A stretch of 64,000 bases of DNA from a bacterium (GCA_031385045.1 JANNBC010000028.1:1-64000), one strand, 5' to 3'; positions 1 through 29,788 are shown, counted from the stretch's first letter. Numbers and translations: made by a program. Notes: generated by a model from the letters alone, not told the origin.

Positions 1-1
1 G

Positions 2-118
2 AGCCTTATAGGATAAGACTCAATGCCTGAGCGACCCCCAAGGGTCGCTTCAAGTGCTTCGCACTTGATATACTAAGCGTCTTTATATTTTTGCTAATTT
101 TCAATGTCACTTAGTATA
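2..118. repeat. Multi-hairpin dispersed repeat (copy 1; probably extends left of the window)
   Basis: 2-52 aligns with 26674-26725, and 55-118 is colinear with 46177-46240. Hairpins: agcgaccc/gggtcgct, tcaagtgc/gcacttga, tatactaag/cttagtata. Confidence 0.7.
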
Positions 119-421
119 CTTGTGTTTGATTAGCCTAAATCTTAGATGCCACTTATTGGAAAACTTGTTCAAGGCTAGTTCCCAGATTTAATTAATGTGC
201 TAAATTTGTCCTATCTGCTAGTTCATTAATGAAACGTAATTTGTTTTTTACCAATAATCAGAAGATGGTTTGTGGCGGATTGCCGTTTTAGGCTAGATTT
301 AGTTTGATAACAATCTTTTTTGTAACACTTCTGGAGAAATATTAATCATACTATAGTGTTTGGTTTGGCTCTGTTACAGAATACGGATGTTTTTCGGGTG
401 CTAAGAGAAAGTTAAATAATT

Positions 422-1891
422 ATGTTTGCAATTGATATTCTACCTTTAATTGATTCTGAACACCATTTGGCGGAAAGATTTTTTCGTGGCCAACCGGCAG
501 TCCTAATTGGTAGTGAACCTGAATGCCAACTACAGCATCCCTTATTACAAAATTTGAATTTCCAAGTATTAATTCAAAAATTAGCTGGAAGTCAATTCGA
601 ATGTCGACAGATTTTCAATGACCCTCAGAATAAATCAGGATTTCAAGATATTTATGATTCTACTGCCAAGCTTAATCTTGGAGCTGTAAAGATTTTAATC
701 ACAAGTATTGACGCAGATTTATTAGTTAAGGAAAACGAAGCTCCTGATCAAGCAGGGTATCGTCTACTAAGACAAGCAGTAACTTCCCAGTTAACAACCT
801 TTCCAGCTTTAGAAATTAATAAGCCTTGGAAAGCGGTTGTCTCTTTTAATCAAGAACAAGTTCTAACAGTGGGCCGTGCTGACTATCATCATTTGGTTAT
901 TGAGCAGTTTGATGTCTCCTCTGATCATGCCAGATTTGGTTTTGCCAATAATAAGTACTGGGTAGAAGATTTGGGTTCTACTAATGGAACTTTTTTAAAT
1001 AATCAGCAGGTATCTGGTAAGATTTTTTTTGAGCCCGGGGAGTCTGTCTTGTTAGGGGCTAGCACAAAAATTACTGGAGTTAAAAAATCAGTTAAGATTG
1101 AGCCAGTGGTAGTTCCTGAGCCAGAGTTAATAAAACCCGAATTGCCAGTGGAAGCAATGGAGCTTAAACCTGCGATCGCTGATCTGCCAACCAATGAGTC
1201 CTTAGATTATTCTCCAACCGAAGAATTATCTCCCGCAAATGTCCAAGAATTATTAGTTGATGTTCGTTATCCAATATTGCTGGCAGTTAATAAAATTGCT
1301 CGTCCCGGAAAATTAATTTTAAAGCTTGGGCAAACCGTTCTAATAGGTCGTGATTCTAATTCCGATCTTTGGTTGGGAGCTCCCTATGTTTCACGAGAGC
1401 ATAATCGGATTACCTTGCAAGCTGATGGATCAATTAAGATTCAAGATCTCAGCTCTAACGGAACTGCCTATTCGGCTGGAATGATTCCTCCAGGGGGAGA
1501 ATTGCTGATTAGTCAGGAGTCTGAGATTTTACATTATGGTTCGGGACTAGCGGTTGCAATTTGTTTTAATCAAGATGATGAAGAAAAATTTATTGCGGCA
1601 GGAGGTCGAGCAGATGCTTTTCTTGATTCCGCGGCTATTGCACCGAGAGAGCAAGTTGCATCATTATTAGCAGCTCCAAAGTCAAACCGCGAAGGACTCC
1701 TTGCTAAAGAGGAAACTTATCGCCCGCTTCGCGCTAATAGTTCTGGTTTACAGGGTGGGGGGATTGTTAGAAAGATTCTTATTAGATTTTTAGGCTTTGA
1801 TTTAAAGCGAAAGATCTTTATTTGTTGTTTAAGCTTGTTAGTAATCGCAATTTTTGTCTTATTAATATCGATAATCTTAACGTTTTTGTAA
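422..1891 (+). CDS. Multi-FHA-domain protein with C-terminal TM anchor
   Basis: Two clear FHA motifs (VGRAD..VSSDHA..EDLGSTNGT; IGRDS..VSREH..QDLSSNGT), a possible degenerate N-terminal FHA (LIGSEPEC), a Pro/Glu linker and a terminal hydrophobic helix. Confidence 0.85.
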   Translation: MFAIDILPLIDSEHHLAERFFRGQPAVLIGSEPECQLQHPLLQNLNFQVLIQKLAGSQFECRQIFNDPQNKSGFQDIYDSTAKLNLGAVKILITSIDADLLVKENEAPDQAGYRLLRQAVTSQLTTFPALEINKPWKAVVSFNQEQVLTVGRADYHHLVIEQFDVSSDHARFGFANNKYWVEDLGSTNGTFLNNQQVSGKIFFEPGESVLLGASTKITGVKKSVKIEPVVVPEPELIKPELPVEAMELKPAIADLPTNESLDYSPTEELSPANVQELLVDVRYPILLAVNKIARPGKLILKLGQTVLIGRDSNSDLWLGAPYVSREHNRITLQADGSIKIQDLSSNGTAYSAGMIPPGGELLISQESEILHYGSGLAVAICFNQDDEEKFIAAGGRADAFLDSAAIAPREQVASLLAAPKSNREGLLAKEETYRPLRANSSGLQGGGIVRKILIRFLGFDLKRKIFICCLSLLVIAIFVLLISIILTFL

Positions 1892-1940
1892 ATTTTGCTA
1901 TTTTTACCAGAACCTTGGGCTTTGGATGCAAAAATTCAGC

Positions 1941-1967
1941 TAAAGTTTCTAGCCAAGAGGTCGATAT
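1941..1967 (+). promoter_or_regulatory. Sigma28 (FliA)-type promoter
   Basis: Intergenic TAAAGTTT-N11-GTCGATAT versus the consensus TAAAGTTT-N11-GCCGATAA. Confidence 0.65.
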
Positions 1968-2131
1968 CTTAAACAGTGAAACGGACAACTTGTTTCTCCT
2001 CATACCCTATAGTAGGCGTTAGTTAGAGGGTTAAGAATAAAATTTTTGTCACGATTTCAAGAAGGATGCCTGTGTAGTTTTAGTGCAAAACTTTTGGATG
2101 ACGTTAGTAGCTTAATTTTAAAATATTAAAT

Positions 2132-3169
2132 ATGTCAGCAGATAGTACGGAATTAACTTTTATTAGATGTTCATCTTGTCGCAGTCTTGTACCAGCAATG
2201 TCTACTCGTTGTAGGATGTGTGGTGCTGATTTACAGGCTAAGAAAGCTGCACCAGTTCCGGAGCCAGTTGCGCCAAGTGAAAAAATTGAAATCAAGAAGC
2301 CAGTAATGCTGGCAACGACTGAGCTAGATCCGCTTAATGAATTCTTAAGCGAAGATGATCAGTTTGACGATGTTGATATTGCAGATGATCAATTAGCGAC
2401 TCTTGATCAGGAAATCCCGGAAGAGCTTCATGCAGAAAGTACATCTGAATATACCGAGGATTTCGAAGATGATTTTGATGAAGAACAAGCAATTAAAGAA
2501 TTAGATAGTTTGTTGGAAGAATTAAATGCTACTTCGGCATCTTCTTATGTGGCACCAGTTGAACCAGTCATTGTGCCTGAAGTAAAACCGATAGAAGCAA
2601 AACCGATGGCAGTGCCTAAGCCTGAGATTAAGGTCGAGCCAGTCGTTGTCGCTCCTAAGGTTGTTATTCCTAAAGTTGTCACTCCGGTGAATGAACAGAA
2701 TTTAATTAACAAATCCCAACCAATAGTTCCTAGTAAGGTGGAGATTAAAGAGGAGAAAGTTATGGAGAAAGAAGTAAGAGCAGTAGAAAACAAGGTAACT
2801 TCAATTAAGTCAGCTTCCCTTAAGCAGACTGAAAAGCAGACCGCCCTTTTTGGTTGGTTTGTGAGTTACCAAGAAGCAGAAGGCGTTTCCAGAGAGATTC
2901 GCGAAGGTAAATTCTTTGTGACAGCAAAGAGTCTTAAGCCTAACGATCTGATTATTGAAGATGAGAGTGTTTCAACACCCCATGCCATGATTACTGTTAG
3001 TCATGAACTAGGTTTCCAAATTCAAGATTTAATGAGTGAGCATGGACTATATATCAAGAAACATGGCACTAAGAAGTATGAAGTGATTGATGATATTGAA
3101 GTTGTTGAAAATGGTGATTGGATTAGATTCGGTAATGTTGAGTTTATGGTTGTGATTATGCCAGTTTGA
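2132..3169 (+). CDS. Zn-ribbon / acidic and Pro-rich linker / C-terminal FHA protein
   Basis: N-terminal CSSC..CRMC, D/E-rich then P/V/K-rich linker, C-terminal FHA-like domain (GWFV..VSTPHA..QDLMSEHG..GDWIRFG). Confidence 0.8.
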   Translation: MSADSTELTFIRCSSCRSLVPAMSTRCRMCGADLQAKKAAPVPEPVAPSEKIEIKKPVMLATTELDPLNEFLSEDDQFDDVDIADDQLATLDQEIPEELHAESTSEYTEDFEDDFDEEQAIKELDSLLEELNATSASSYVAPVEPVIVPEVKPIEAKPMAVPKPEIKVEPVVVAPKVVIPKVVTPVNEQNLINKSQPIVPSKVEIKEEKVMEKEVRAVENKVTSIKSASLKQTEKQTALFGWFVSYQEAEGVSREIREGKFFVTAKSLKPNDLIIEDESVSTPHAMITVSHELGFQIQDLMSEHGLYIKKHGTKKYEVIDDIEVVENGDWIRFGNVEFMVVIMPV

Positions 3170-3319
3170 TACCAGGTCTTAAGCTGGTTAACCACGGATT
3201 TTACAGACTCTATTTTCTTAAAAAACTATAGAGTTTCAAAATCATTTTTCTTGTGTAAGAATAGGGATAGACCATAAGACCTGAGCCCTTAACAAGTTTA
3301 AGGTGGTGTTACAAATCTA

Positions 3320-4162
3320 ATGAAAATAGTTAAACTCACTTTTTTATTATTAATCTTAATCTGCACAAGTAGTTGTCGCGATGTTCAAGTCGCTGAAAAT
3401 ATCAATCAATATCAAGCCCATCAGATTATCAATAAACTAAGTTCTTCGGGGATTGACTCCAAATATTTTGCCAATAGCAATGGTAAGTCTTATTCTGTCT
3501 CAGTTGCTCAGCGAGATTATTTACCAGCTGTTAGTATTATTGCCGTCTCTGGTATTCTTCCCAAAGTTGATTCTGATTTTAAAGAATTAACCGAACCCAA
3601 GGGGTTTTTATCTAGTAATAAATCTTTTGACCTCTTAAGATTAGACCGAGCTATTGCAGTTGAGCTAGAAGATGCTTTGCTTGGTGTCCCAAGTATTACG
3701 AATGCTAAAGTTGTTGTGCGACTCAATAGTTTACCAGCTAATCAAGTCCCCTCTGTTTCGATTGTTGCTGGTACTCGTGATCAGCAAGCGGATCTTGGTT
3801 ATATTACAGATTTAGTTAAGAATTCTATTCCAGGTATTCAGGAGGAGCATATTAAATTGATTTTAGAGCGAGTCCCAGATGCTGGTTCTGATTTTTCAAT
3901 GATTGGTACAATTCAAGAAAAGGGGAAGATGTTGGCAATTCCGCTAGTCCCATTTTTAATTTGGCAAGTTCCTTCGGGGGTTGAGCTAGAATTAGCTTGG
4001 GCTTCAATCGCCATTTTGGTGATTGCTCTGCTTGTTGGATACTTTTTGGCAACAATTTTCCGGAAACCTAAATTAAGGGAGCGGAATTCACTAAGCTTAC
4101 CAGAGTCTAACTCTTTAGCTTTGGGACTTCCAAAAGATTTAAATGAGGAGGATTATCGATGA
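3320..4162 (+). CDS. sctJ: T3SS inner-membrane ring lipoprotein SctJ (YscJ/PrgK-like), divergent
   Basis: Lipoprotein signal ending TSSC, YscJ-like segments (QAHQIINKLSSSGI; RAIAVELEDALLGVPSITNAKVVV), C-terminal TM followed by basic residues. Confidence 0.8.
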   Translation: MKIVKLTFLLLILICTSSCRDVQVAENINQYQAHQIINKLSSSGIDSKYFANSNGKSYSVSVAQRDYLPAVSIIAVSGILPKVDSDFKELTEPKGFLSSNKSFDLLRLDRAIAVELEDALLGVPSITNAKVVVRLNSLPANQVPSVSIVAGTRDQQADLGYITDLVKNSIPGIQEEHIKLILERVPDAGSDFSMIGTIQEKGKMLAIPLVPFLIWQVPSGVELELAWASIAILVIALLVGYFLATIFRKPKLRERNSLSLPESNSLALGLPKDLNEEDYR

Positions 4163-4404
4163 GCCAAGAGAATCAAGGTAATATCTTCAATAAATTAGAG
4201 CCAGAGCAACAAGCACTGGTGGCAATAGCTGTTTTATTAGATGGTTTTGATAGTCCTTTTTTTCTAGGAGATGATTTTTCGCATCAAGATCAATTACGTC
4301 TAGCCGCTGAGGAGATTGTGAAGGATGCTCCCCAGCAACGCTTGCCCTACGTCGCAACCTTACTTCGTCGAGCATTAAATGAGCTGAGGAACCAAGATGA
4401 GTAA
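4159..4404 (+). CDS. Small helical protein at the SctK/FliG position
   Basis: 81 aa, RBS gaggag, ATGA overlap with sctJ, overlaps the next gene; weak likeness to the FliG N-terminus. Confidence 0.55.
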   Translation: MSQENQGNIFNKLEPEQQALVAIAVLLDGFDSPFFLGDDFSHQDQLRLAAEEIVKDAPQQRLPYVATLLRRALNELRNQDE

Positions 4405-5392
4405 TGAATGGCAATTAGCGGAAGAAGTTGAATCACTAGATCCTAAGATTATTAAATATGGTATTGGGTTTCTTAACTCTCGTCCACAAAATTGGATTCC
4501 TAATTTCTCTTCCTTTTGGACTCCGTTATTGGAATTATTAAACTTTGAAGTTGCTGTTTTAGATATACAACCAACCTTTGATTTTCCAATAAGTGGGAAT
4601 AGCTTGTGGTTGGGTGCTTTTGAAAATAATAAAATAGGGGTTAGTTGTGAGCCATTTGTCGCCAAGTATTTAGCAAGTCTTTTTATTACAGATATTGATT
4701 CTCTGACTAGTAAGGTTCTAGAAGATTATTTAGCAAGGCGCTTAATGCAGTCGTTAGTTGCTTCTTGGACAGGCCCATCGCTTAGTCACTTTCAGTATTT
4801 CGGTGCAAGTTCAATGAAAGACTTTGAACCTAGTGCCGGCATTAAAATTACTATGTCTGTTAATGGTCGCCAAGTTACACTCTGGTTATTGATCGAGGAA
4901 CTTTTACTAAAGAAATTAGATAATTTGTGGAGAAGACAGACCACAACATTTAATATTAAGAAATTAGAATCCCGAAGATATCAATTAGTACTCTATAGCC
5001 AACAAATTCAACTGGAGGAGTTAGAAACCTCATTGGTTATTGGTAATAAGATTTATCTAGCTGGGTTAGATCCAAGGTTTGTTACTATGCGTGATATTGT
5101 TAATGACTCGACTTGGAAAATAAAGCTCTATAGTAGTAGTGATCAGCTAGTCATGAAGATCCTTGAGTCTAACGTTCCTTATCAGCTAGACGTAAGAGAC
5201 CTATTAATGCGGGTCACATTTCCAGAAATTACACTTAGTACTGAGCAGTTACAGTTAAATACTAATGAATCCTTTATCTCTACAGGACTTGCTCCGGGTA
5301 CAGAATTATTGATTAAAGTCTCCGATGAGACCGTTGCCCAGGCAAAGCTCGGAAAGGATGCTAATGGTTATTTTGCTCAAATCCTAAATTAA
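4397..5392 (+). CDS. sctQ: SctQ/FliM-like C-ring/sorting-platform protein, divergent
   Basis: FliM-middle-like helix (VLEDYLARRLMQSLVASW) and two degenerate SpoA repeats (QIQLEELETSLVIGNKI; EITLSTEQL..GTELLIKVSDETVAQAKL..GYFAQI); lies directly upstream of sctR. Confidence 0.65.
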   Translation: MSNEWQLAEEVESLDPKIIKYGIGFLNSRPQNWIPNFSSFWTPLLELLNFEVAVLDIQPTFDFPISGNSLWLGAFENNKIGVSCEPFVAKYLASLFITDIDSLTSKVLEDYLARRLMQSLVASWTGPSLSHFQYFGASSMKDFEPSAGIKITMSVNGRQVTLWLLIEELLLKKLDNLWRRQTTTFNIKKLESRRYQLVLYSQQIQLEELETSLVIGNKIYLAGLDPRFVTMRDIVNDSTWKIKLYSSSDQLVMKILESNVPYQLDVRDLLMRVTFPEITLSTEQLQLNTNESFISTGLAPGTELLIKVSDETVAQAKLGKDANGYFAQILN

Positions 5393-5453
5393 TCCATTTC
5401 GCCTATAAAATTCCCCCTAGAAGCCAAGGCTTATCTCCGTTATACTTCAGCCT

Positions 5454-6026
5454 ATGGTAGAATTAGTAATTATAATGTTGGTTTCCAGTGCCTTTGTTAA
5501 ATTGGTCACAACACTCAGTATTTTTCAGTATGGATTAGGTCTTAAGAACTTCTCCTTTAGTGTTGTAGTATTCTTACTTAGCTTAGTCTTGACATTATTT
5601 GTGATGCAGCCAACTTGGGATCAGCTTGGCGGTTGGCAGGGAATTAGTCAGGCCAGTCCAGAAAAGATTGCGAGTTTTCAAACTCAAATTGACCCTTTTG
5701 TTCAAAAGCATAGTGATCCAGAAAGCCTTAGCCGTTTAAAGGATATTTATCAAAAAAGTCATCCAGAAGTTTCTTTAGATATCATTCCATGGTCAGTCAA
5801 AATTACCGCATTTATGACTACGGAGTTAAAAGAGGCCTTTTACATTGGATTACTACTAATTATTCCTTTTGTTTTTTTAGATCTGTTAGTTGTTAACATT
5901 TTGATGGCTTTAAACATTACTCAAATTTCAGCTCTAACAGTTGCTTTACCATTTAAGTTGTTAATCTTTTATCTATTTGACGGTTGGCAACTATTAACCG
6001 AAAAATTATTAAGTTTTTATTATTAA
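5454..6026 (+). CDS. sctR: T3SS export gate protein SctR/FliP, divergent and N-terminally shortened
   Basis: SAFVKL..GLG..LTLFVMQP; AF..ELKEAFYIG..PFVFLDLLV.NILMAL; LPFKLLIF..DGW. Confidence 0.9.
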   Translation: MVELVIIMLVSSAFVKLVTTLSIFQYGLGLKNFSFSVVVFLLSLVLTLFVMQPTWDQLGGWQGISQASPEKIASFQTQIDPFVQKHSDPESLSRLKDIYQKSHPEVSLDIIPWSVKITAFMTTELKEAFYIGLLLIIPFVFLDLLVVNILMALNITQISALTVALPFKLLIFYLFDGWQLLTEKLLSFYY

Positions 6027-6030
6027 TATT

Positions 6031-6279
6031 ATGTCTCCAGACTTATTAATTGAATCAATCCTTTACGCAGTTCGCTTATTTTTATTAGTTACAATTCCGT
6101 TATTGTTAGCTTTGACGCTGGCCGGGACATTTTCGGGAATGTTACAAGCGATTACGGGGATTAGGGAAAGCCTGATTAACTATTTTGTAAAGTTAATTGC
6201 CTTGTTTTCTATCTTATATTTCTTTTTACCTAGTCTGATTCAAAGTCTGCAAGAAATATTTAATAATTACTATTTATGA
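6031..6279 (+). CDS. sctS: T3SS export gate protein SctS/FliQ
   Basis: 82 aa, two hydrophobic helices, IPLL..G..GMLQAITGIRE..FVKLIA. Confidence 0.8.
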   Translation: MSPDLLIESILYAVRLFLLVTIPLLLALTLAGTFSGMLQAITGIRESLINYFVKLIALFSILYFFLPSLIQSLQEIFNNYYL

Positions 6280-6851
6280 TTTCATGTGTGCTTGCTGGTT
6301 TCCTGTTTTATCTCTGGGGACGTTCTGGAGTTTTAACCGGCATTTTATTTCTTCTTGGGCTTTTAATTTATTTCACGCAAGAACTTGGACTTAACTTAGG
6401 TTTTGTTTCCGAAATTCTTTTAGTTTGTTCAGTCTTAGCCTTGCCACTTAGCTTTTATATTGCGGGATCTTTATTAGATAATTTCATAGCAGAGAGGTTT
6501 TCTAAGCAATTACCATTAGCATTAATTTTTTTACTTTTTGGATTATACATAATTATAGAGCAGGGGATATTCTTTGATCAGTTAGAATATTCAGTTAAAT
6601 TGATTAGCAATCCAAGCTCACTAAGCCCTTTGTTTTTATTATTAGAAATACTCACTAAAACAATTATGACAACAACCGGTGTTGTGCTCACAATAATGTT
6701 TGTTGCTTTATGTTTTATCTTGCCGTTTGCCTGGTTTGCAAAAAATTCGCGATTAAATCTGAGTTGGGCAGTTCCTAGTATCACTCTTGTCTTGGTTTTA
6801 TTTTTAATCTCCAGCAGTTATCAATTAATTTTAACAAAGCTATTTGCTTAG
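6276..6851 (+). CDS. sctT: T3SS export gate protein SctT/FliR, shortened
   Basis: Polytopic membrane protein with IAGSLLDN matching the AG..ID motif; sits between sctS and sctU; ATGA overlap. Confidence 0.6.
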   Translation: MISCVLAGFLFYLWGRSGVLTGILFLLGLLIYFTQELGLNLGFVSEILLVCSVLALPLSFYIAGSLLDNFIAERFSKQLPLALIFLLFGLYIIIEQGIFFDQLEYSVKLISNPSSLSPLFLLLEILTKTIMTTTGVVLTIMFVALCFILPFAWFAKNSRLNLSWAVPSITLVLVLFLISSSYQLILTKLFA

Positions 6852-7526
6852 ATGAGTTTTAGTTTTCCAAGTCAAAAAAAATTGGCCATGCTTCGAAAAA
6901 ATGGGGTAGTGCCAGCTGCTCCTTGGATTGGACGCCTATTGGTTCTTTTTGGTTTAGGAGCTTATTTTTATTTCTCAGCTGAAAAATTACTTGCCCAGCT
7001 ATTAGCTTATTACCAAGGCCTTTTTGCTTCTGTAGTTCAACCAGAAACTTACCAAGTCTTATTTTTTACCCTGATTAAGGATTTTATTATAGTCCCAGTA
7101 TTACTTTGTTTGGTACTGATCTTTTTGGGTGTTTTAATTCAGACTAGATTTTACTTTAGTTTTGATAACCTTCGACTAGATTTTACAAGATTTGGACTTA
7201 CTGCTCAGTTGCAGACAATTCAACCTATTAAAAAGATCTTATTTTTCTTAGCACTACCCATATTGCTAGCGATTGGATTTATTTTGTCACTTCGCTGGGC
7301 GGATGTATTTATGGCTAGTGTCTCTTGGGTTGCGACTGAGCGACGAACAGCTTATTTGGAGTTGTTTAAATCAATTGCTAGTCAAATAGCTGTTGTTGCG
7401 TTATTATTAATGATCTTAGCAGTGTTACTTAATTGGTTTTATTTCCGATTGGAGCACAGTCAGAATGATCATGACTCGCTTGATGCTGATTCAGCAAGCC
7501 ATAATTCGATTGATAGTATTAGATAA
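6852..7526 (+). CDS. sctU: SctU/FlhB transmembrane domain only (no cytoplasmic NPTH domain)
   Basis: PSQKKLAMLRKNGVV resembles PTPKKLRDARKKGQV, LIQTRFYFSFDNLRLDF resembles LQ.GFLFS.EAL.PDF; four TMs; ends at 224 aa. Confidence 0.75.
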   Translation: MSFSFPSQKKLAMLRKNGVVPAAPWIGRLLVLFGLGAYFYFSAEKLLAQLLAYYQGLFASVVQPETYQVLFFTLIKDFIIVPVLLCLVLIFLGVLIQTRFYFSFDNLRLDFTRFGLTAQLQTIQPIKKILFFLALPILLAIGFILSLRWADVFMASVSWVATERRTAYLELFKSIASQIAVVALLLMILAVLLNWFYFRLEHSQNDHDSLDADSASHNSIDSIR

Positions 7527-7768
7527 TGCCATATCCTAAAAAAGATTTAATTTCTCAAGCACCCTTATTCCTTCTATTGCCGGAGCGACGTTCTTTAGAT
7601 GGTTTTGAGAAGTATCTTTCGGCCTTTTATTTAAGACTAGAGAAACTGAACCAGTTAGAGCAAGAGGGAAGCGATCTATCTACTGAAAATCAAGCCGAGT
7701 TAGCTATGTTAAGGCAAGTTGTTGATTGGTTGACGCTTCATTCCGAAATTGAAGGAAACAGGAATTAA
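7526..7768 (+). CDS. Small hypothetical protein (possible SctX-like)
   Basis: TAATG coupling with sctU; amphipathic C-terminal helix ELAMLRQVVDWL; precedes the TPR gene. Confidence 0.5.
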   Translation: MPYPKKDLISQAPLFLLLPERRSLDGFEKYLSAFYLRLEKLNQLEQEGSDLSTENQAELAMLRQVVDWLTLHSEIEGNRN

Positions 7769-7774
7769 AAACTC

Positions 7775-8203
7775 ATGAGCTTATTAGATTCAAGATTAAG
7801 TAGTTACTCGGAAGAAGAACTCGACTTATTATATTCTTTAGGGGTTTTTTATCTTGAGGCGGGACATTATCGTTCGTCCGAAATGATTTTCCAAGGACTA
7901 ACTGTTGTGGCCCCCGGCTTTTCTGATTCTTGGCTCGCTGCCGCAGCAACATTTTTTATGTTAGGTAACTTTGATCAAGCTAGGAGATATGCACATCAAG
8001 CAATGCGTTTAACTCCTCATGCCATTCAGGTTCAATTACTATATGTAACAATTTTACTTTCTCAAAATGAACTTTCCGAGGCAGGTACTTTGTTAGGGGA
8101 AATTAAAGAACAGATTGATACCAAATTAATTCAAAATCCCGATCAGATTCGTTATTTTCGTGCCCAGTTAGCCCGCTTTGAATTTGCTCAAAATCGTGGA
8201 TAG
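7775..8203 (+). CDS. TPR chaperone, SycD/LcrH- or SctY-like
   Basis: LDLLYSLGVFYLEAGHY..IFQGLTVVAP..WLA; about three TPR repeats. Confidence 0.75.
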   Translation: MSLLDSRLSSYSEEELDLLYSLGVFYLEAGHYRSSEMIFQGLTVVAPGFSDSWLAAAATFFMLGNFDQARRYAHQAMRLTPHAIQVQLLYVTILLSQNELSEAGTLLGEIKEQIDTKLIQNPDQIRYFRAQLARFEFAQNRG

Positions 8204-8206
8204 GCG

Positions 8207-8554
8207 TTACTCTTTTTTTGACTCCTTCTCCGGTAATTCTTGCTCTTCCAGTAATGCCGCGTCAATTGTCTGTTTCACTGCTAATTCAATTGCTTGTCGT
8301 TGAGCTTCGGGTATCTTTGAATTAGAGAATAATTTTTCAGCCTCTTGTTCTACCATCTGTAATAACTCAGCGCGCTCCTGATAAGACATCTCTCTAGTTG
8401 GCATGCGACTGGCTCCCGACACTCCGGTCACGGCACCAACTTTTGATGTTTTACTGACCTGAGAAATCGCCTCAGATTTACGAACGGAATTTAGAGCATC
8501 AGTCTTATTAATACCTTTAATTTTTTTATCGTTTGAATCAATTCCATCAACCAT
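8207..8554 (-). CDS. Hypothetical protein downstream of a sigma factor (candidate anti-sigma or secreted substrate)
   Basis: RBS ggagag; S/T/K/G-rich, probably disordered N-terminus and helical C-terminus. Confidence 0.6.
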   Translation of the reverse strand: MVDGIDSNDKKIKGINKTDALNSVRKSEAISQVSKTSKVGAVTGVSGASRMPTREMSYQERAELLQMVEQEAEKLFSNSKIPEAQRQAIELAVKQTIDAALLEEQELPEKESKKE

Positions 8555-8589
8555 CTTTCTCTCCGTTCAATTTGAAAATCTATAAATTT

Positions 8590-9375
8590 TTAGTATTGCC
8601 CTGAAAATTCTGAGACCTTTTTCGTAAAGATTCCAAAATCTTCTTTATGAGCCATGACAACATTGGCATCTTTTAGCCCCGGTCGAATCCTTGGTGAGTC
8701 AAGCTCCTTTCCGGTGGAAACACTTTTCTGAAGGTATTCCATGATTACTTTATGTTCTCTAATTACATTAAGTTCGTCAGTGTTCCATTCTGTGGCAACG
8801 CCTCGTAATGATAATCCTTCCCAATATACTTTCCAGACAAGAAGTTGGTGAAGTGGTTCTAGATCAGAAAGATTAATAATTAATTGTTTGAACTCTGTAG
8901 CTTCTTCTGGATTAGAATCTTGAATGCCGTGTTTAGTAGAAATTAAACAAGCACTAATTAATAATTGTTGGATACCAACACGAACACCTTGTTCAGAATC
9001 ATCTTCGCTCGGCAAAATCCCCGATCTAATTTGAGGATATAATTCAAATAACTCGGCAGAAATTGCTCGCGCCAAGCGTTCTGTCCTTTTAGAATTACGA
9101 CTATCTTTCTCCCATGATTTACTATTACGAGCAGCTTCAGTAGAGGCTTCATGAATTCTTCTGCGGGCATAACTTTTAAAGGGCACTCCTAATTTGGGAT
9201 CAAATCTGCGAGCGCAAAAAATTAAAGCTTCAAATGCAGCCCCATCTAGACCGTCATCTTGCCAGTGTAAATTCCATCCTCGGGCTACAGATTTGGCAAT
9301 TTTTTCAGCCCAAATTTGATGCTCTAAGACTAACTCATTAGCTTCATCCATGCTTAAAATCGTTGTTTCGGTCAT
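8590..9375 (-). CDS. FliA/sigma28-like RNA polymerase sigma factor, divergent
   Basis: Region 2 (LDGAAFEALIFCARRFDPKLGVPFKSYARRRI) and region 4 (LEPLHQLLVWKVYWEGLSLRGVA). Confidence 0.8.
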   Translation of the reverse strand: MTETTILSMDEANELVLEHQIWAEKIAKSVARGWNLHWQDDGLDGAAFEALIFCARRFDPKLGVPFKSYARRRIHEASTEAARNSKSWEKDSRNSKRTERLARAISAELFELYPQIRSGILPSEDDSEQGVRVGIQQLLISACLISTKHGIQDSNPEEATEFKQLIINLSDLEPLHQLLVWKVYWEGLSLRGVATEWNTDELNVIREHKVIMEYLQKSVSTGKELDSPRIRPGLKDANVVMAHKEDFGIFTKKVSEFSGQY

Positions 9376-9529
9376 TTTATGTATTTTACATTAAAAATTT
9401 ACAATTCACCATCAGTTTATAGAAGCACTTCACAAACAATCTTCGATAGTCATTTTAGGTGCACTGCACTAATCGCAGAATAAATTTTAAAGCAGTTCAA
9501 ACTTATTAAATACTAACTTTGAACTAGCC

Positions 9530-9577
9530 GTGGATTCCAAAAAGTTATGTTTTATTACATTGCTTTTTGGAATCCAC
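9530..9577. repeat. Perfect 15-bp inverted repeat between the divergent sigma genes
   Basis: gtggattccaaaaag (9530-9544) / ctttttggaatccac (9563-9577); adjacent IR agttcaaa/tttgaact at 9494-9525. Confidence 0.8.
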
Positions 9578-9586
9578 TCATAAGGG

Positions 9587-10372
9587 ATGTTTGTTATGAG
9601 TAATTGTCGTTCAGAAGCCGAAAAAACTAAAGGTAAAATCTATGATTTTGCAAAAATAGTTGAGCGCAAGGAGTCCATAGCGACCCACCTCAGTATCCAT
9701 GAAAAAAACGGTTTAATTATGAAAAATAGGATACAGGGCCGTAAATTAGCCTGTAGTATGCTTAGAAAATGGAACTGCCGTTTAGATTTAGAAGAAGTTG
9801 ATAGTATTGTTGATTTGTCGCTATGCGAAGCAGTGAAGTATTTTGACCCAGCAAAAGGGGTAAATTTCTTAACTTTTTTATTCTATCACCTGCGGGGAAA
9901 TTTAATTCGAACAATTAAAATCCAAGCTAATCAAACTGCAATTCCTTTGGAATTTACAGATGAAAACATGGAGAGTGGATATATTGGTCATGAGCGAATT
10001 AATACTGCCGATGCCTTTGAAACTTTTGGTACTGTACAAAAGTCTCCCGATCAACAGTTTCAAGAAGGTCAGTTTTTTGAATTAACGAAGCAAGCTTGTG
10101 AAAAATTGTCTGATCTAGAACGAGAAATTATTCGGAATGTTTTTATCCACGAAGAGCAAGTTACGCAATTAGCGCAAGATTTAAATTATAGTCGTTGTCA
10201 TATTTCTAGATTAAAAACTGCCACGATTAATAAGCTTCGCTCCGAGATTGAAAAAATTACTGGAGAAAAAATTTCCATCTCTGAAGGTCTGGAATCTCCG
10301 CGTCGAGCTTTAGATACTCGTCATCGGGTTCGTAGCTTGAAAGTTAAGAAGGTTAAGAAGATAGCGGCTTAG
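9587..10372 (+). CDS. Sigma-70 family (FliA/SigF-like group 3) sigma factor
   Basis: LSLCEAVKYFDPAKGVNFLTFLFYHLRG; LSDLEREII..VTQLAQDLNYSRCHISRL (helix-turn-helix). Confidence 0.85.
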   Translation: MFVMSNCRSEAEKTKGKIYDFAKIVERKESIATHLSIHEKNGLIMKNRIQGRKLACSMLRKWNCRLDLEEVDSIVDLSLCEAVKYFDPAKGVNFLTFLFYHLRGNLIRTIKIQANQTAIPLEFTDENMESGYIGHERINTADAFETFGTVQKSPDQQFQEGQFFELTKQACEKLSDLEREIIRNVFIHEEQVTQLAQDLNYSRCHISRLKTATINKLRSEIEKITGEKISISEGLESPRRALDTRHRVRSLKVKKVKKIAA

Positions 10373-10487
10373 TATTGAGTTTGCTAGACGCTTCGATTTT
10401 ATAAGATATTGCTTATTAAAAGTTATATTCATCTAATTTTTTCAATTAGCTAGGTCCTGAGCATACTTTTCGTGATATTGCCTACAA

Positions 10488-10566
10488 TCCTCCTTCGCCA
10501 TGCTACGGAGGATATAGTGTTAGTGCTTTTTGTTCGCTTTGCGAACTTGGGTTTTTGAACACTATA
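10488..10566. repeat. REP-like palindrome plus adjacent IR-bounded element
   Basis: tcctccttcgccatgctacggagga nearly matches the reverse complement of 21421-21447; tatagtgtt/aacactata IR at 10513-10566. Confidence 0.7.
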
Positions 10567-10642
10567 GATTTGCGCCTAAGCTTAATGTCTAATATATAAT
10601 ATATACCTACAAACTGTATAGTTTTAAATTTATTATAGATAG

Positions 10643-11521
10643 ATGTTTCTGGCCTTTGTTAAGTTAATATTATTGATTCTAGGTGCATCGGCACTGATTA
10701 CACCAGGCGTTTATTATTTAGTACCTAAGTTGCTAACTCTCGAGGAGATGTGGCCTTATTCTCGAATTTACGACCGAGTCGCTTTAGCAGTTTTAATCTT
10801 AGGTCTTTATTATTTTCGTAAGCAGTTTCAACTTAAAGAATTAAAAGGGGATTTTAAACTTTGGTCAGAAGACCAGAAATGGACTAAGTTTTTTGTTGGT
10901 TTCTTAATAGCTCTTATCCCAGTCTTGTTAGTTTTACCTTTAATGGTTTACCAGGGACATTTAAGTTGGGCGGCAAGGGATCTACCCTACTATTTAGAAC
11001 GAACAGCTAAGCTCATCCCAACAATCTTTGTAGTCTCTTTTTTAGAAGAATTAGTTTTCCGAATTTTTATTTTTTGGACGCTTTATAAATCATTTGGATT
11101 AATTAAAAGTCTGCTTTTAAGCAGCGTTTTTTATTCTTTTGTTCATTTCATTGCTCCTGTTAAGACATTTAAAGTCCATGGCTATGATTTCCTTGCAGGC
11201 TTTGAGTATTACTTAGTTGTGATCGAAAGAATCTTAAGTTTTGATTTACTTTCGGCTTTGGTTATCTTGTTAACGATCGGAGCTTTTTTAGCATTACTCT
11301 TAAAGCAAACTCGATCACTCTTTTTGTGTGCTGGTTTTCATGGCGGTTGGATTGCTGCAATTAAAATTACGAAATTTTATACAGACATCCAAGATACTGG
11401 TGTTAGTAAACTTCAAGAGCAATATTTTCTATTAACTTTTCCTGCTACTTGGTTGGCAATGGGAATTACTTTGATCTTTGCTTATTTTCTTTTCTTTCGT
11501 GGTAAAAAATGGAACTATTAA
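10643..11521 (+). CDS. CPBP (CAAX/Abi) intramembrane glutamic endopeptidase
   Basis: EELVFR, FVH and FHGGW motifs; polytopic. Confidence 0.85.
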   Translation: MFLAFVKLILLILGASALITPGVYYLVPKLLTLEEMWPYSRIYDRVALAVLILGLYYFRKQFQLKELKGDFKLWSEDQKWTKFFVGFLIALIPVLLVLPLMVYQGHLSWAARDLPYYLERTAKLIPTIFVVSFLEELVFRIFIFWTLYKSFGLIKSLLLSSVFYSFVHFIAPVKTFKVHGYDFLAGFEYYLVVIERILSFDLLSALVILLTIGAFLALLLKQTRSLFLCAGFHGGWIAAIKITKFYTDIQDTGVSKLQEQYFLLTFPATWLAMGITLIFAYFLFFRGKKWNY

Positions 11522-20130: not shown

Positions 20131-20298
20131 AATAGTGTTTAAGGGAAATTAATGGCTTTTTAGAATTTATATTTGTTCGGAGCCAAGCTTTCCTTATGCT
20201 TAGACTTTAAATCATCGGAAGAATTTTCAAAATACTGCATCTTTTTAGAGAAAATCGGCATCAAATCTGGAGTATTTGGTTTTTTTTCAAGGATGATC

Positions 20299-20751
20299 AT
20301 GACCAGTAGCTCGGCAGAATTTTATCAAAGTTGGTATCGACAGTTTTACACAGTAGAGAATGAGTTTGCTCAAAATAGTGAACAACAATTACAACAAGGG
20401 TTTTCTGTGTTTAAATTTGCAAACCTACTGCACCTAAAATTTGAAGCATTTGCTAAGAATTCAACAAGTGTCGTTGATAGCACCGAAGCTGACGAGACTC
20501 GGATGAAGGCACAAACTTCTAGATTTTTAAATTTCCTAAATACTTCTTCGATTGTACTCCAAAAGCTTGTTGCTAAAATTAAGTCTGAAGATACTCTGAT
20601 TTATAATCGTATTCAGAAACTAGTAACTTTTTTATTTGAGCAAATCGATCGATTGCGGGTTCGTTGTTTAAGACTACTAAAAAGTAAGCTAGGAATTAAA
20701 TTTCAATATTTAGGTATCATTAAGCAAGTTACTAAATGTGTTTGCTTGTAA
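20299..20751 (+). CDS. Hypothetical helical protein
   Basis: Open frame with an aagga RBS-like sequence near 20290; overlaps the PPTase 3' end; start uncertain. Confidence 0.4.
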   Translation: MTSSSAEFYQSWYRQFYTVENEFAQNSEQQLQQGFSVFKFANLLHLKFEAFAKNSTSVVDSTEADETRMKAQTSRFLNFLNTSSIVLQKLVAKIKSEDTLIYNRIQKLVTFLFEQIDRLRVRCLRLLKSKLGIKFQYLGIIKQVTKCVCL

Positions 20752-29244: not shown

Positions 29245-29781
29245 TTATAGACAGCCAGTAGTTACTGGGTCGTCGATCATAAAATTTTCGCTCAATTCAG
29301 AACTATTCTTGAAAAAAATTTTGCTTGTAGAAAAAACTGTACTCAAATTTTGTGTGCCGTCATCATCATATGTATAATCTTGTTGAGTTGATTTTGAACC
29401 TTTACAATGGGTAGCGATAGCTATCATATAAATATCTTTTGAACTATTAGTTCTCCAAACTTGCAATTGAGAAAAAACGTCTTTTTGAGATTTATAGCCT
29501 GGTACTAAATTTTCAATACTAAGGCTATCAGCTCCTTGTTTTATTGATGTGCCGTCAGCAAGAAAACTTATTGAATACGAACTATTTGGATTGTCACCTA
29601 ATGCTTCTTCAATGTTAGCAGCATGGGCAGCAGTATAGATGTTTATAGTATGAGTCATCGCTGTTGCGTCGTTTGCTTTGGCCTTATATTCCTGAAATTG
29701 GGCAACTGATATTGTTGCAATTATACTTAGGACAGCTACTGTCACTAGGAGTTCAACCAAACTAAAACCTTGGTAATTCAT
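29245..29781 (-). CDS. Type IV pilin-like protein (prepilin N-terminal cleavage/methylation domain)
   Basis: QG|FSLVELLVTVAVLSIIATI; Cys pair in the C-terminal region. Confidence 0.9.
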   Translation of the reverse strand: MNYQGFSLVELLVTVAVLSIIATISVAQFQEYKAKANDATAMTHTINIYTAAHAANIEEALGDNPNSSYSISFLADGTSIKQGADSLSIENLVPGYKSQKDVFSQLQVWRTNSSKDIYMIAIATHCKGSKSTQQDYTYDDDGTQNLSTVFSTSKIFFKNSSELSENFMIDDPVTTGCL

Positions 29782-29788
29782 TCTAATC

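Follow-up and report, generated by a model that had tools for sequence, protein, structure and literature searches.

A divergent needle-less type III secretion-like gene cluster with FHA proteins and two sigma factors in an uncultured Bdellovibrio-like bacterium

The question raised by this locus is what machine, if any, can be built from a compact set of type III secretion system (T3SS)-like genes that is accompanied by FHA proteins and two sigma factors, and near which no SctV, ATPase or secretin gene was recognized. The locus occupies positions 422-10372 of a 64,000-nt stretch of DNA (the window), whose host belongs to a lineage of uncultured Bdellovibrio-like bacteria, and we found no paper that describes this system. 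An initial annotation interpreted it as a pared-down machine of T3SS origin in a non-model lineage. Our results support this view: the cluster proteins match Sct/Fli profiles, no complete canonical T3SS or flagellar gene set was found elsewhere in the window's genome, the SctV of the system is not nested in any described family that we sampled, and dN/dS is far below 1. On balance, we regard the cluster as encoding those core parts of a very divergent needle-less type III machine that reside in the inner membrane and the cytoplasm; the machine would work as a Tad-coupled exporter like Kil with T3SS* of Myxococcus, here probably driven by the proton-motive force.

Gene content of the cluster

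All ORFs named in the initial annotation were found where it had placed them, free of frameshifts and internal stops, and the tight junctions it reported from sctJ onwards are real: the reading frames of SctJ and orf81 share positions 4159-4162, those of orf81 and orf331 4397-4404 and those of SctS and orf191 6276-6279, orf191 and SctU are directly adjacent (6851/6852), and base 7526 is common to SctU and orf80. The first base of the window is also that of its contig; in a second genome of the same genus (G041) unrelated housekeeping genes lie upstream of the first FHA gene, and hence the cluster is not cut there. A scan of 41 more ORFs between 13.9 and 64 kb brought up no other gene for a T3SS, a flagellum or a secretin. 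The window's genome (G000) and G041 are both metagenome bins, 94.9% and 97% complete, and a search of RNA runs found none that contains the locus. In searches with Pfam and NCBIfam profiles, the latter with their equivalog cut-offs, every part of the system scores under its NCBIfam equivalog cut-off. Nonetheless, the profile matches agree with the assignment of two FHA proteins, SctJ, SctR, SctS, a SctU reduced to its membrane part and a TPR chaperone; that of SctQ is borne out indirectly, and those of SctT and of two sigma28-like factors are more tentative, as described below.

The cluster opens with FHA1 (422-1891, + strand), a multi-FHA protein with matches to Pfam FHA (83.1 bits over two stretches) and Yop-YscD_cpl (48.7 bits, cut-off 33.2). 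Its single C-terminal TM anchor (residues 467-485) is followed by 4 residues, and in 10 of 11 orthologues, too, a TM lies at the terminus, with no more than 16 residues beyond it. FHA1 occupies the position of SctD, but has no periplasmic (ring) domain. In FHA2 (2132-3169, +), a long linker rich in acidic residues and proline separates an N-terminal CxxC...CxxC zinc-ribbon-like motif (CxxC at residues 13 and 27) from a C-terminal FHA domain (Pfam FHA, 28.6 bits). The inner-membrane ring protein (3320-4162, +) matches YscJ_FliF (35.6 bits, cut-off 24.4) and is of the SctJ rather than the FliF type, its best NCBIfam model being SctJ (TIGR02544, 62.4 bits against a cut-off of 161.95); its N-terminus looks like a signal or lipoprotein sequence and its TM helix is C-terminal, with hydrophobic segments at residues 1-19 and 217-235.

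The small conserved protein orf81 (4159-4404, +) has homologues at 21 loci in other genomes (22 aligned rows including the window); searches for a family, PDB or atlas match found none, nor did hhalign detect likeness to FliG_N. The overlap of its frame with those of both SctJ and SctQ suggests translational coupling. The SctQ/FliM-type sorting-platform protein, orf331 (4397-5392, +), has no direct Pfam or NCBIfam match, yet all 7 tested orthologues match FliMN_C above the cut-off, the family profile matches YscQ-C (PDB 3uep, E 1.9e-7), and the AF2 model (pLDDT 83.9) retrieves FliM (8umd_C, 4.1e-7) and the FliM middle domain (7dm9, 2.2e-4) in Foldseek. The protein is composed of a CheC/FliM-middle-like N domain and two SpoA domains, and its homologues occur in 109 of the 124 genomes of the phylum. 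In relatives, a SctO/FliJ gene lies between orf81 and SctQ (13 of 17 match FliJ, best E 8.1e-11), whereas in the window these two genes overlap, leaving no room for it.

Of the export-gate subunits, SctR (5454-6026, +) is the clearest match (Pfam FliP, 125.9 bits; in NCBIfam EscR/YscR 120.4, fliP 112.9 and yscR 110.9 bits, all under cut-off). SctS (6031-6279, +) matches Bac_export_3 (36.6 bits, cut-off 25), with fliQ (39 bits) slightly above sctS (29.7 bits) in NCBIfam. The polytopic membrane protein orf191 (6276-6851, +) is probably SctT: its place between SctS and SctU and its five hydrophobic segments fit this assignment, whereas the searches run found no sequence similarity to SctT, and its weak model (pLDDT 63.8) recovers FliR (6s3s_F, Z 6.3) and Shigella SctT (8axk_F, Z 6.0) amid helical noise. 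SctU (6852-7526, +; Bac_export_2, 51.8 bits) is confined to the membrane domain, covering profile positions 7-207 of 335, with no NP[TE]H motif and no autocleaving NPTH cytoplasmic domain. Among 11 SctU-labelled ORFs of relatives, all of which lack an NPxH motif, 9 are 238-275 aa long and stop just past the linker, the other two (176 and 107 aa) being fragments of one gene.

Downstream lies orf80 (7526-7768, +), another small conserved protein, with 14 homologues occupying the equivalent place in other genomes (15 aligned rows including the window); neither a PDB nor a family match was found for it, one orthologue giving a sub-threshold FlgM score of 14.1 bits. It precedes a TPR protein (7775-8203, +; Pfam TPR_19, 39.1 bits) that weakly resembles two types of T3SS chaperone in NCBIfam, LcrH/SycD (35.6 bits against a cut-off of 104.8) and SctY (31.7 bits against 70).

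SctV, the Tad-like operon and the missing parts

The reported lack of SctV, SctN, SctL, secretin and other components stands for the 64 kb, but the SctV of the system is encoded on another contig (C7), as the gene after tadC. It is full length (FHIPEP, 526 bits) and scores higher with hrcV (520.7 bits) than with FlhA (454.3 bits) in NCBIfam. The Tad-like operon comprises PP2C, Zn-FHA, kinase, TadZ, RcpC, TadA, TadB, TadC, SctV and a kinase-like membrane protein, its Zn-FHA gene (20265-21287) being a paralogue of FHA2; genes for a pilin, a peptidase or a secretin are missing in cis. The same genome has a second Tad locus on contig C56 and a second, different T3SS-like set on contigs C13 and C38.

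A link to a Tad-like, FHA-associated apparatus, which the initial annotation had only guessed at, is revealed by gene order in relatives. In other orders of the class, a kinase-like gene lies directly upstream of FHA1 in 14 of 21 loci, with SctV and Tad genes on its far side wherever the contig extends that far, the two loci being united there in a single cluster; of the other 7 loci, 4 end at contig edges and 3 are atypical. In the window's own order the T3SS-core half and the Tad/SctV half are linked in none of 8 loci, and therefore the coupling to Tad in this organism rests on ancestry. The cluster is kept by the whole lineage together with the Tad pilus.

Neither SctN (above cut-off) nor SctL (FliH) was found in G000 or G041, a neighboring genus serving as the positive control for SctL, while 116 of the 124 genomes of the phylum encode at least one ATPase. 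The absence of the ATPase complex thus appears to be a trait of the window's genus and not of the lineage, although, the two bins being incomplete, an ATPase may have been missed. No needle, translocon or rod family was detected among the cluster ORFs with Pfam and NCBIfam, and SctI and SctK were not recognized.

In the mechanism we favor, the window would provide a SctJ ring, a gate of SctR, SctS, probably SctT, and SctU without its switch domain, a FliM/SctQ-type platform, a tail-anchored multi-FHA protein at the SctD position, a zinc-ribbon FHA protein, a chaperone-like TPR protein, two small conserved proteins, a sigma-1/anti-sigma-like pair and a second sigma factor, with SctV, the ninth gate component, supplied from the Tad-like operon. 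Kinase/phosphatase signaling, read by the FHA proteins, would trigger assembly of a joint Tad-plus-T3SS envelope complex, in which the gate would carry unfolded proteins across the inner membrane and the physically coupled Tad part may offer a passage or contact on its far side, along the lines put forward for Myxococcus Kil with T3SS*. With SctN, SctL and SctO lost from this genus, the proton-motive force would power the gate. Finally, export or capture of the anti-sigma-like orf115 could couple the activity of sigma-1 to the state of the machine.

Sigma factors, selection and competing explanations

Both sigma factors belong to the sigma-70 family, but their sequences agree only weakly with the description as sigma28-like: sigma-1 scores 29.5 and sigma-2 34.6 bits for FliA_WhiG, whose cut-off is 189.6. 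Sigma-1 (8590-9375, - strand) is divergent, with a weak Pfam region 2 (16.6 bits) and 39.3 bits for the NCBIfam sigma-70 family (cut-off 42.9). Sigma-2 (9587-10372, +), whose transcription diverges from that of sigma-1, has Pfam sigma-70 regions 2 and 4 and exceeds the same family cut-off (59.9 bits), while remaining under that of SigBFG (49.2 bits); it adjoins sigma-1 in relatives. The region between them contains, just upstream of the sigma-2 start, two inverted repeats (9494-9577, without strand), with arms of 15 nt (9494-9508/9511-9525, 87% complementary) and 21 nt (9530-9550/9557-9577, 90% complementary), both largely kept in G041 despite the saturated synonymous sites. The anti-sigma-like candidate orf115 (8207-8554, -), proposed from conservation, position and complex prediction, is the next gene downstream of sigma-1 at 28 of 29 loci and has a conserved, helical C half. 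Modeling predicts that it binds sigma-1 like an anti-sigma factor: the predicted complex scored 0.80 (runs of 0.80, 0.84 and 0.79; contact agreement at least 43%, partner pLDDT at least 52) against 0.00 for the best of three controls. Of solved complexes, 116 of 157 attain that mark, compared with 2 of 215 mismatched pairs. This prediction, made from custom alignments, may nevertheless echo the model's memory of solved sigma/anti-sigma pairs.

It is tempting to consider the whole apparatus as a regulatory exporter, whose gate exports or titrates orf115 and so switches on the sigma-1 regulon, in the manner of FlgM export, with no effectors and no physical work with Tad. The sigma-2/sigma-1/orf115 trio is indeed the most conserved part of the cluster (orf115 has homologues in 113 of the 124 genomes, and sigma-1 is the best-conserved gene, with 96% identity within the genus, dN/dS of 0.02 and 39-56% identity to relatives outside it), it occurs with no neighboring T3SS genes in both loci of family f28, and, besides the predicted complex, the Gly/Ser/Val-rich N half of orf115 is disordered, as is that of exported FlgM. 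Yet this explanation accounts neither for SctV within the Tad operon nor for the kinase, phosphatase and FHA genes that travel with the cluster, orf115 has no FlgM match in Pfam and its export is hypothetical, and a full SctJ/SctQ/SctV apparatus would be a costly control for one sigma factor. We therefore consider it unlikely, albeit the most serious of the alternatives.

Next in probability, and doubtful too, is the possibility that the machine is on its way out, the genes that remain after the loss of SctN, SctL, SctO and the flagellum being non-functional leftovers or a scaffold with no role in secretion. It is favored by the failure to find the ATPase complex in either genome of the genus, by the unlinked Tad/SctV half in this order, and by the low within-genus identity of orf191 (53%) and SctU (50%) compared to 78-96% for the other parts; these two proteins evolve about four times faster than the rest (dN/dS of SctU about 0.2), which could reflect relaxed constraint following loss of the ATPase. 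However, none of the 14 genes is disrupted in either of two species that have diverged to saturation at synonymous sites, the overlapping, potentially translationally coupled junctions are kept, and SctV on C7 is full length. The cluster genes are under purifying selection and are not decaying: dN relative to G041 is 0.03-0.17 in 12 of the 14, similar to three housekeeping controls (0.09-0.19), and far below dS, which was too saturated to compute for SctR, orf191, orf80 and orf115 and otherwise amounts to 1.4-2.9, giving dN/dS values of 0.02-0.08 that are rough owing to this saturation. Moreover, flagellar export without FliH/FliI is reportedly possible on the proton-motive force.

Very improbable, in our opinion, is an ordinary injectisome scattered over the genome, as in Chlamydiae, with genes for the needle, secretin, ATPase and translocon located elsewhere or too divergent to be recognized. 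T3SS genes do lie on several contigs, the genome is about 95% complete, and one of its only two secretins (the other is the T2SS GspD) is a lone protein with STN and N0 domains on contig C45. On the other hand, SctV branches deeply on its own in the tree, apart from the injectisome and flagellar clades sampled, the former including one Chlamydiales and two myxobacterial sequences and having 7 of 8 checked anchors confirmed as injectisome-type by neighboring genes; the sub-cut-off scores of all parts, the NPTH domain missing from each ORF labelled SctU that was inspected, the failure to find SctN and SctL in two genomes and the missing periplasmic ring domain of FHA1 speak against it as well. 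Least probable of all is a remnant of the flagellar export apparatus left after loss of motility, since, although family f1 (3 genomes) lacks flagellar-type FlhA and FliP, no flagellin or rod gene was found in G000, the platform protein has a FliM-like fold and SctS scores slightly better as fliQ, flagellated relatives hold this set besides a normal flagellar one (three SctV/FlhA and three FliP types in two well-assembled genomes), the SctV tree places the set with the non-flagellar sequences (SH-aLRT 95 for the split), the ring protein is SctJ-type, and neither FliG nor a FliG_N domain was found.

Comparison with known systems

The Tad-coupled exporter that we favor resembles the T3SS* of Myxococcus, which lacks a secretin, a needle and a translocon, is recruited by the Tad-like Kil system and is required for prey lysis (PMC12075869, PMC10433427). 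The M. xanthus T3SS* (mxan_2434-2464) and Kil share with our system a core devoid of secretin, needle and translocon, LcrH-like chaperones and a Tad-like partner rich in FHA proteins (PMC10433427, PMC12075869, PMC8460266). The action of the present machine may be contact-dependent. The Myxococcus system is, however, reported with SctD, SctI, SctN and SctL, while here no SctI was recognized and the genus lacks the ATPase complex. Further, Myxococcus encodes its two systems at separate loci, whereas here the partnership is visible in gene order; FHA1 lacks the periplasmic domain; SctU lacks the NPTH domain, while an Archangium relative has a full-length SctU (351 aa, profile 1-335); and SctV does not group with myxobacterial sequences.

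With injectisomes (Ysc, SPI-1, LEE, chlamydial Cds) the system shares SctJ, SctQ with two SpoA domains, SctR/S/U, SctV, a TPR chaperone-like protein and, in relatives, the gene order SctO-SctQ-SctR-S-T-U, typical of the ysc and SPI-1 operons. It differs from them in that no needle, inner rod or translocon was recognized and there is no dedicated secretin or SctK, in the reduction of SctD to cytoplasmic FHA domains and an anchor, in the truncation of SctU, and in the divergence seen in the profile scores and the SctV tree. The flagellar export apparatus has the same gate families and, judging from the model, a similar platform fold, and sigma-1 with orf115 resembles FliA/FlgM in layout and predicted complex, though both are under the respective family thresholds. 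Unlike in the flagellum, FliF, FliG, rod, hook and flagellin are missing here, and relatives own a separate true flagellar set. A natural ATPase-free state would parallel that of fliH-fliI mutants.

Finally, the discussion in PMC8460266 cites control of type VI secretion in Pseudomonas aeruginosa by threonine phosphorylation, which involves a kinase, a phosphatase and an FHA protein. In the present system, too, genes for a Ser/Thr kinase, a PP2C phosphatase and FHA proteins accompany those for a secretion machine. The machine is a different one and the likeness no more than an analogy, which suggests that assembly of the present system may be triggered post-translationally.

The gene cluster and its products

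The genome that harbors the cluster comprises 2.83 Mb in 61 contigs and is rated 94.9% complete and 0.31% contaminated. Fourteen intact ORFs span positions 422-10372 of contig C8, and the overlapping or abutting gene junctions reported in the initial annotation are all confirmed in the sequence. The product of the first gene, FHA1 (422-1891), matches the Pfam families FHA (83.1 bits, in two stretches) and Yop-YscD_cpl (48.7 bits against a cut-off of 33.2) and ends 4 residues past its sole, C-terminal TM helix; the same tail anchor is seen in 10 of 11 orthologues. The periplasmic ring domains typical of the injectisome SctD are absent from FHA1, and the end of the chain at the TM helix thus means that the cytoplasmic half of SctD is present and the periplasmic ring is not. 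FHA2 (2132-3169; FHA, 28.6 bits) carries CxxC motifs at residues 13 and 27. SctJ (3320-4162) scores 35.6 bits against a cut-off of 24.4 with the YscJ_FliF family in Pfam, and its best model in NCBIfam is SctJ itself, with 62.4 bits, under the equivalog cut-off of 161.95.

Three components of the export gate, SctR (5454-6026; FliP, 125.9 bits), SctS (6031-6279; Bac_export_3, 36.6 bits) and SctU (6852-7526; Bac_export_2, 51.8 bits), exceed their Pfam cut-offs; SctV, encoded on another contig (C7), scores 526 bits. SctU is truncated: its match covers positions 7-207 of the 335 in the profile, and the NP[TE]H motif is lacking from the window copy, from a second copy on contig C13 and from 3 orthologues. 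Nor does any of 11 more ORFs labelled SctU, taken from other orders, contain an NPxH motif; 9 of them are 238-275 aa long and stop just past the linker, and the other 2 (176 and 107 aa) are pieces of one gene. SctT can be assigned from position only, as the probable product of orf191 (6276-6851), which occupies the SctT position and has five hydrophobic segments. Attempts to recognize it as SctT by other means gave negative or weak results: hhalign against the C13 SctT gave a probability of 0.3, a PDB profile search returned 0 matches, a word-indexed protein search retrieved only orf191 itself, the protein atlas offered no named cluster, and the AlphaFold2 model is weak (pLDDT 63.8), with FliR and SctT found by the VIA structure search at Z of about 6, ranked under unrelated helical bundles.

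The ORF at 4397-5392 has no direct match in Pfam or NCBIfam. Nonetheless, each of the 7 orthologues examined scores over the FliMN_C (SpoA) cut-off, with 26.2 to 56.8 bits, and a 13-row family profile, matching over two stretches (residues 196-273 and 280-341), finds the C-terminal domain of YscQ (3uep, E-value 1.9e-7) as well as FliY, FliM-FliN, SpaO and HrcQ2. The AlphaFold2 model (pLDDT 83.9) resembles the full-length Salmonella FliM (8umd_C, E-value 4.1e-7) and, further, the FliM(SpoA)::FliN fusion 4yxc_B and FliM middle domains or CheC/CheX. Taken together, the orthologue matches, the family profile and the structural model identify this ORF as a platform protein of the FliM/SctQ type. 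A FliMN_C search of the entire genome retrieves nothing, which illustrates how strongly the window copy of SctQ has diverged.

Among the remaining products, the TPR protein (7775-8203) matches TPR families in Pfam and shows a weak likeness to the LcrH/SycD (35.6 bits) and SctY (31.7 bits) models of NCBIfam, both under cut-off. The small ORFs orf81 (4159-4404) and orf80 (7526-7768) lack family matches but are conserved, as 21 homologues of orf81 and 14 of orf80 could be aligned; no similarity to known proteins was found in PDB profile searches or, for orf81, in the atlas and by hhalign. The idea that orf81 mimics the N-terminal domain of FliG was unsupported by the PDB profile search, the atlas, a FliG_N search of the genome and hhalign against the FliG of a relative. 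The cluster ends with orf115 (8207-8554, minus strand; no match), sigma-1 (8590-9375, minus strand; weak sigma-70 region 2 in Pfam) and sigma-2 (9587-10372; sigma-70 regions 2 and 4).

None of the 41 other ORFs scanned between 13.9 and 64 kb is a further T3SS, flagellar or secretin gene, all of them being housekeeping. Two loci in the window may be mentioned here: a PrkA/DUF444 (YeaH-like)/SpoVR-like triad at 54105-58855 (minus strand), in a non-sporulating lineage, and a gene for a pilin-like protein, with a methylation motif at its N-terminus, adjoining two ORFs of 344 and 656 aa without a family match (29245-33105, minus strand). In positions 1-10700, neither sigma-70 promoters (32 found, 29.3 in shuffled sequence) nor terminators (7 found, 8.5 in shuffled sequence) are in excess. 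Short blocks at 160-240 and 9494-9577 are kept in the same-genus genome despite saturated synonymous sites; a conserved block, GTTCAAGGCTAGTTC, lies upstream of FHA1, and both a palindrome (AGTTCAA...TTGAACT) and a hairpin with 21-nt arms are conserved before sigma-2. From base composition about 12 copies of the sequence GGCTAGTTC would be expected in the genome; there are 28, some of them near pilus genes (C13:32504, C10:11677, C5:77928). No RNA run is listed for the locus; the runs in which it occurs are all of DNA and come from the sediment metagenomes of 2 studies.

Linkage to a Tad-like operon and conservation in the phylum

The initial annotation saw no SctV in the 64 kb; there is indeed none in the window, but the SctV of this system is encoded on C7, next to TadC. 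The genes of C7 lie on one strand in the order PP2C phosphatase, zinc-ribbon FHA paralogue of FHA2, Ser/Thr kinase, TadZ-like protein, RcpC, TadA/CpaF, TadB, TadC, full-length SctV (FHIPEP, 526 bits) and a kinase-like protein of 798 aa with one TM helix. According to Pfam, the operon has the domains of a Tad/Kil-like system, namely T2SSE, T2SSF (twice), a ParA-like domain, RcpC and FHA. It contains no pilin, peptidase or secretin gene, and an Flp pilin sought in the TadB-TadA gap was not found; elsewhere the genome has three genes for Flp pilins, at C13:32996, C39:26894 and C10:13664, and a single prepilin peptidase gene at C17:23730. A second, more ordinary Tad-like locus with TadC, TadB, TadA, RcpC and TadZ is found at C56:77304-82736 (minus strand).

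The relationship between the two loci becomes evident from the gene order in 20-kb loci of relatives, 8 from the same order as our genome and 21 from other orders of the class. Within the same order, the Tad, SctV and kinase-like genes adjoin FHA1 in none of the 8 loci, and the genes upstream of FHA1 are a response regulator (7 of 8) and RNase G (6 of 8). In other orders, the kinase-like gene is found directly upstream of FHA1 in 14 of the 21 loci, and beyond it SctV and then TadC/B/A follow wherever the contig continues; 4 of the rest are cut by contig ends and 3 (L036, L190, L191) are atypical. Hence, the ancestral layout is a single cluster that comprises the Tad genes, SctV, the kinase-like gene, FHA1, FHA2, SctJ, orf81, SctO, SctQ, SctR/S/T/U, orf80, the TPR gene, orf115/sigma-1 and sigma-2, which was split into two loci in the order studied here. 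The link to a Tad-like, FHA-containing apparatus, put forward at the outset as a possibility, is borne out at the level of gene order, both on C7 and in the relatives.

The genome contains two SctV genes and, besides the window's, a second SctR/S/T/U set; these belong to a second, different T3SS-like set distributed, with one of the SctV genes, over two contigs (loci L007/L006). At C13:18834-22651 (minus strand) three small or unknown ORFs are accompanied by SctR (165 bits), SctS, SctT (49 bits) and an SctU of 245 aa, also devoid of NPTH, followed by a hybrid histidine kinase; C38:43355-47946 (plus strand) encodes a sigma factor, an SctJ-type protein, orf93, an SctV of 613 aa and a TPR protein. 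The relative G056 has a second set of the same architecture, plus a SpoA protein of its own. We considered a junction between the end of C38 (SctV-TPR-orf103) and the start of C8 and rejected it: FHA1 is preceded in the same-genus genome by genes for ScpA/B, a pseudouridine synthase, a SpoU methylase and a response regulator, and the C38-like set is on another contig.

Of 124 genomes in the phylum, 109 carry the SctQ-type gene, as do 68 of the 73 high-quality ones. The profile of the SctQ N-domain matched both of the two bins named "Bdellovibrionota bacterium", and neither the one Bdellovibrionaceae bin, the one Archangium genome and the one myxobacterial-type bin searched, nor any of 201 genomes drawn from the phylum to which the Bdellovibrionaceae bin belongs. 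Comparison of the window genes with their same-genus orthologues, with three housekeeping genes as controls, yields dN of 0.03-0.17 for 12 of the 14 cluster genes; dS, where computable, is saturated (1.4-2.9), and dN/dS of 0.02-0.08 is like that of the controls. For SctR, orf191, orf80 and orf115 dS is too saturated to be computed. The exceptions are orf191 (53% identity within the genus, dN 0.41) and SctU (50% identity, dN 0.42, dN/dS about 0.2). The cluster genes are not decaying, and the gate is still under selection.

The best-conserved gene of the cluster is sigma-1, with 96% identity within the genus. The description of two sigma28-like factors holds as far as two sigma factors are concerned, but both fall far under the FliA_WhiG cut-off of NCBIfam (29.5 bits for sigma-1 and 34.6 for sigma-2, against 189.6). 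The immediate downstream neighbour of sigma-1 in 28 of 29 loci is orf115, which is present in 113 of the 124 genomes and has a low-complexity N-terminal half and a conserved helical C-terminal half; neither it nor 3 orthologues gave a Pfam match that would make it FlgM by sequence. Prediction of a complex between sigma-1 and orf115 from our own alignments (29 and 27 rows) scored 0.80 (runs 0.80, 0.84, 0.79) with a model that may remember solved sigma/anti-sigma complexes; the best of 3 controls scored 0.00, and a score this high is attained for 116 of 157 solved complexes and for 2 of 215 mismatched pairs. At least 43% of contacts are shared among the runs, with a partner pLDDT of at least 52, and the predicted interface involves residues 55-103 of orf115 and several regions of sigma-1. 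This model supports, but does not show, an anti-sigma role of orf115, and from the predicted binding the two proteins may work like the sigma-28/FlgM pair.

Missing parts and the position of SctV

A search with TIGR01026 for SctN/FliI retrieved only F1 alpha/beta and Rho from our genome and nothing over the cut-off from the same-genus genome; SctN/FliI over this cut-off is found in 116 of the 124 genomes of the phylum. FliH/SctL was likewise found in neither genome of the genus, but was recovered from that of a neighbouring genus, which served as a positive control. In other orders orf81 and SctQ are separated by a gene of about 158 aa, and as 13 of its 17 copies match FliJ (best E-value 8.1e-11) and 5 match YscO-like, it corresponds to SctO. 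The 8-base overlap of orf81 and SctQ in the window leaves no room for this gene in its place, and a SctO profile search of the three genomes of the family retrieved none, so that the whole ATPase complex appears to have been lost in this genus.

Several relatives possess a lone pair of FliH-like and T3SS-type ATPase genes unlinked to any gate set (G056:C3:100226-102224, L043:9225-11224; G040:C119:2062-3958, L042; G011:C1:799057-801068, L041:9057-11068), placed in one genome after murJ; its assignment to one gate set by linkage is not possible. The ATPase scores across the phylum fall into about three classes (575-609, 515-567 and 395-465 bits, approximately), a pattern that points to distinct ATPases serving the flagellum and each of the two further sets. 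One genome in a single contig, G057 (rated 82% complete), encodes flagellar-type FlhA (864.8 bits) and FliP (239.6 bits), with neither FliI/SctN over the cut-off nor a FliG_N match.

No dedicated secretin SctC is found: the two secretins of the genome are GspD of a T2SS operon and a lone STN-secretin that adjoins mnmG and accBC. Needle, inner rod and translocon families of Pfam and NCBIfam are absent among the cluster ORFs, and flagellin (Flagellin_N), rod (Flg_bb_rod) and FliG_N among the proteins of the genome. Flagellar-type FlhA and FliP are absent from the three genomes of the family, and the two YscJ_FliF-family proteins of our genome (window SctJ and the one on C38) both best match the SctJ model.

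All parts score under the equivalog cut-offs of flagellar and injectisome models of NCBIfam alike, with SctV leaning to hrcV (520.7 bits, versus 454.3 for FlhA). In a 90-row SctV/FlhA tree (FastTree), the Tad-linked SctV proteins form a clade of their own, apart from the injectisome and flagellar ones. A 48-row tree (IQ-TREE short search, LG+G4) has a flagellar side of 20 rows (SH-aLRT 95) and a non-flagellar side of three clades, with the branching among them unresolved: injectisomes (18 rows, support 99), including Chlamydiales and myxobacterial sequences; the Tad-linked SctV (6 rows, support 100), outside the sampled injectisome clade; and the second-set SctV of C38 (4 rows, support 100). 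Archangium and myxobacterial SctV fall inside the injectisome clade, away from the Tad-linked set. The 48-row tree is one of a single gene with long branches and composition bias, in which groups were labelled from the first tree and organism identity; the neighbouring genes include injectisome markers at 7 of 8 injectisome anchors, and FlhF and FlhG at 3 of 6 flagellar anchors. The trees, together with the Tad/SctV operon and the names of the nearest relatives, led us to reject a Chlamydia-like origin, at first suspected because GC content is low and the T3SS genes are scattered. Two SctV/FlhA proteins in the "flagellar" clade, of a Myxococcaceae bin (L120) and of Janthinobacterium (L083), lack flagellar neighbours; in L120 the SctS domain is the C-terminal part of a 557-aa ORF, and in L083 a neighbouring ORF matches the ATLF domain family PF07737.

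A possible joint machine and its relation to known systems

We regard as firm the homology of the parts, their lineage-wide conservation and the gene-order link to the Tad-like operon and SctV, as well as the truncation of SctU, the tail-anchored FHA protein, the lack of a secretin and of any recognised needle gene among the cluster ORFs and, in this genus, the missing ATPase complex. On this basis we lean, with modest confidence, towards a single contact-triggered envelope machine built of the T3SS core and the Tad module, which would be controlled by kinase/phosphatase/FHA signalling, powered in this genus by proton-motive force, and report its state to sigma-1 through orf115. A bolder and in our opinion doubtful extension is a lineage-wide composite nanomachine, in which the T3SS gate would form part of the Tad pilus apparatus and pass proteins, either cargo from the cytoplasm or components of the pilus tip, into the Tad conduit or alongside it; it would represent a third T3SS lineage, branching deeply next to those of flagella and injectisomes, a natural exporter driven in this genus by proton-motive force only, without the ATPase complex, and an exported FlgM-like anti-sigma factor would report the state of the machine to transcription.

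Predation biology still asks how the needle-less T3SS of Myxococcus works together with a Tad-like pilus. The occurrence of both machines in one operon, in a different phylum-level lineage, provides independent genetic evidence that they form a unit, and offers a compact conserved parts list, in which SctV beside TadC is joined by a kinase-like membrane protein and by FHA proteins with a tail anchor. That SctN, SctL and SctO were lost while selection still acts on the gate constitutes a natural experiment on what powers type III export, and an SctU without its switch domain together with the deep position of SctV bears on the origin of the injectisome from flagella.

In our search of the literature we found no published description of a T3SS-like system in Bdellovibrionota, or of the present system. 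From the flagellar T3SS it differs by the absence of FliG, rod and flagellin in this genome, and by profile scores neither sigma-1 nor orf115 belongs to the families of the sigma-28/FlgM pair (FliA_WhiG and FlgM, respectively). With the injectisome it shares the SctJ-type inner ring; the autocleaving NPTH domain of SctU, the secretin SctC and, in this genus, the ATPase complex SctN/SctL/SctO are absent, and SctV is not nested within the sampled injectisome clade. The closest parallel is the needle-less T3SS of Myxococcus (T3SS*), which comprises SctD, J, I, Q, RSTUV, N, L and LcrH-like chaperones without secretin, needle and translocon (PMC10433427). Other sources state that the Kil Tad-like system recruits T3SS*, which is needed for prey lysis (PMC12075869), that FHA proteins are abundant in Kil clusters and Kil-like Tad systems occur in Bdellovibrionales (PMC8460266), and, in a review, that T3SS/Tad co-occurrence "appears restricted" to one myxobacterial suborder (PMC12428579). 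The two systems do not appear to share a common descent, as SctV groups apart and SctN, SctL, SctD and SctI differ. Both combine a T3SS core that lacks a secretin and any recognised needle or translocon with a link to a Tad apparatus, which in the present case is one of gene order.
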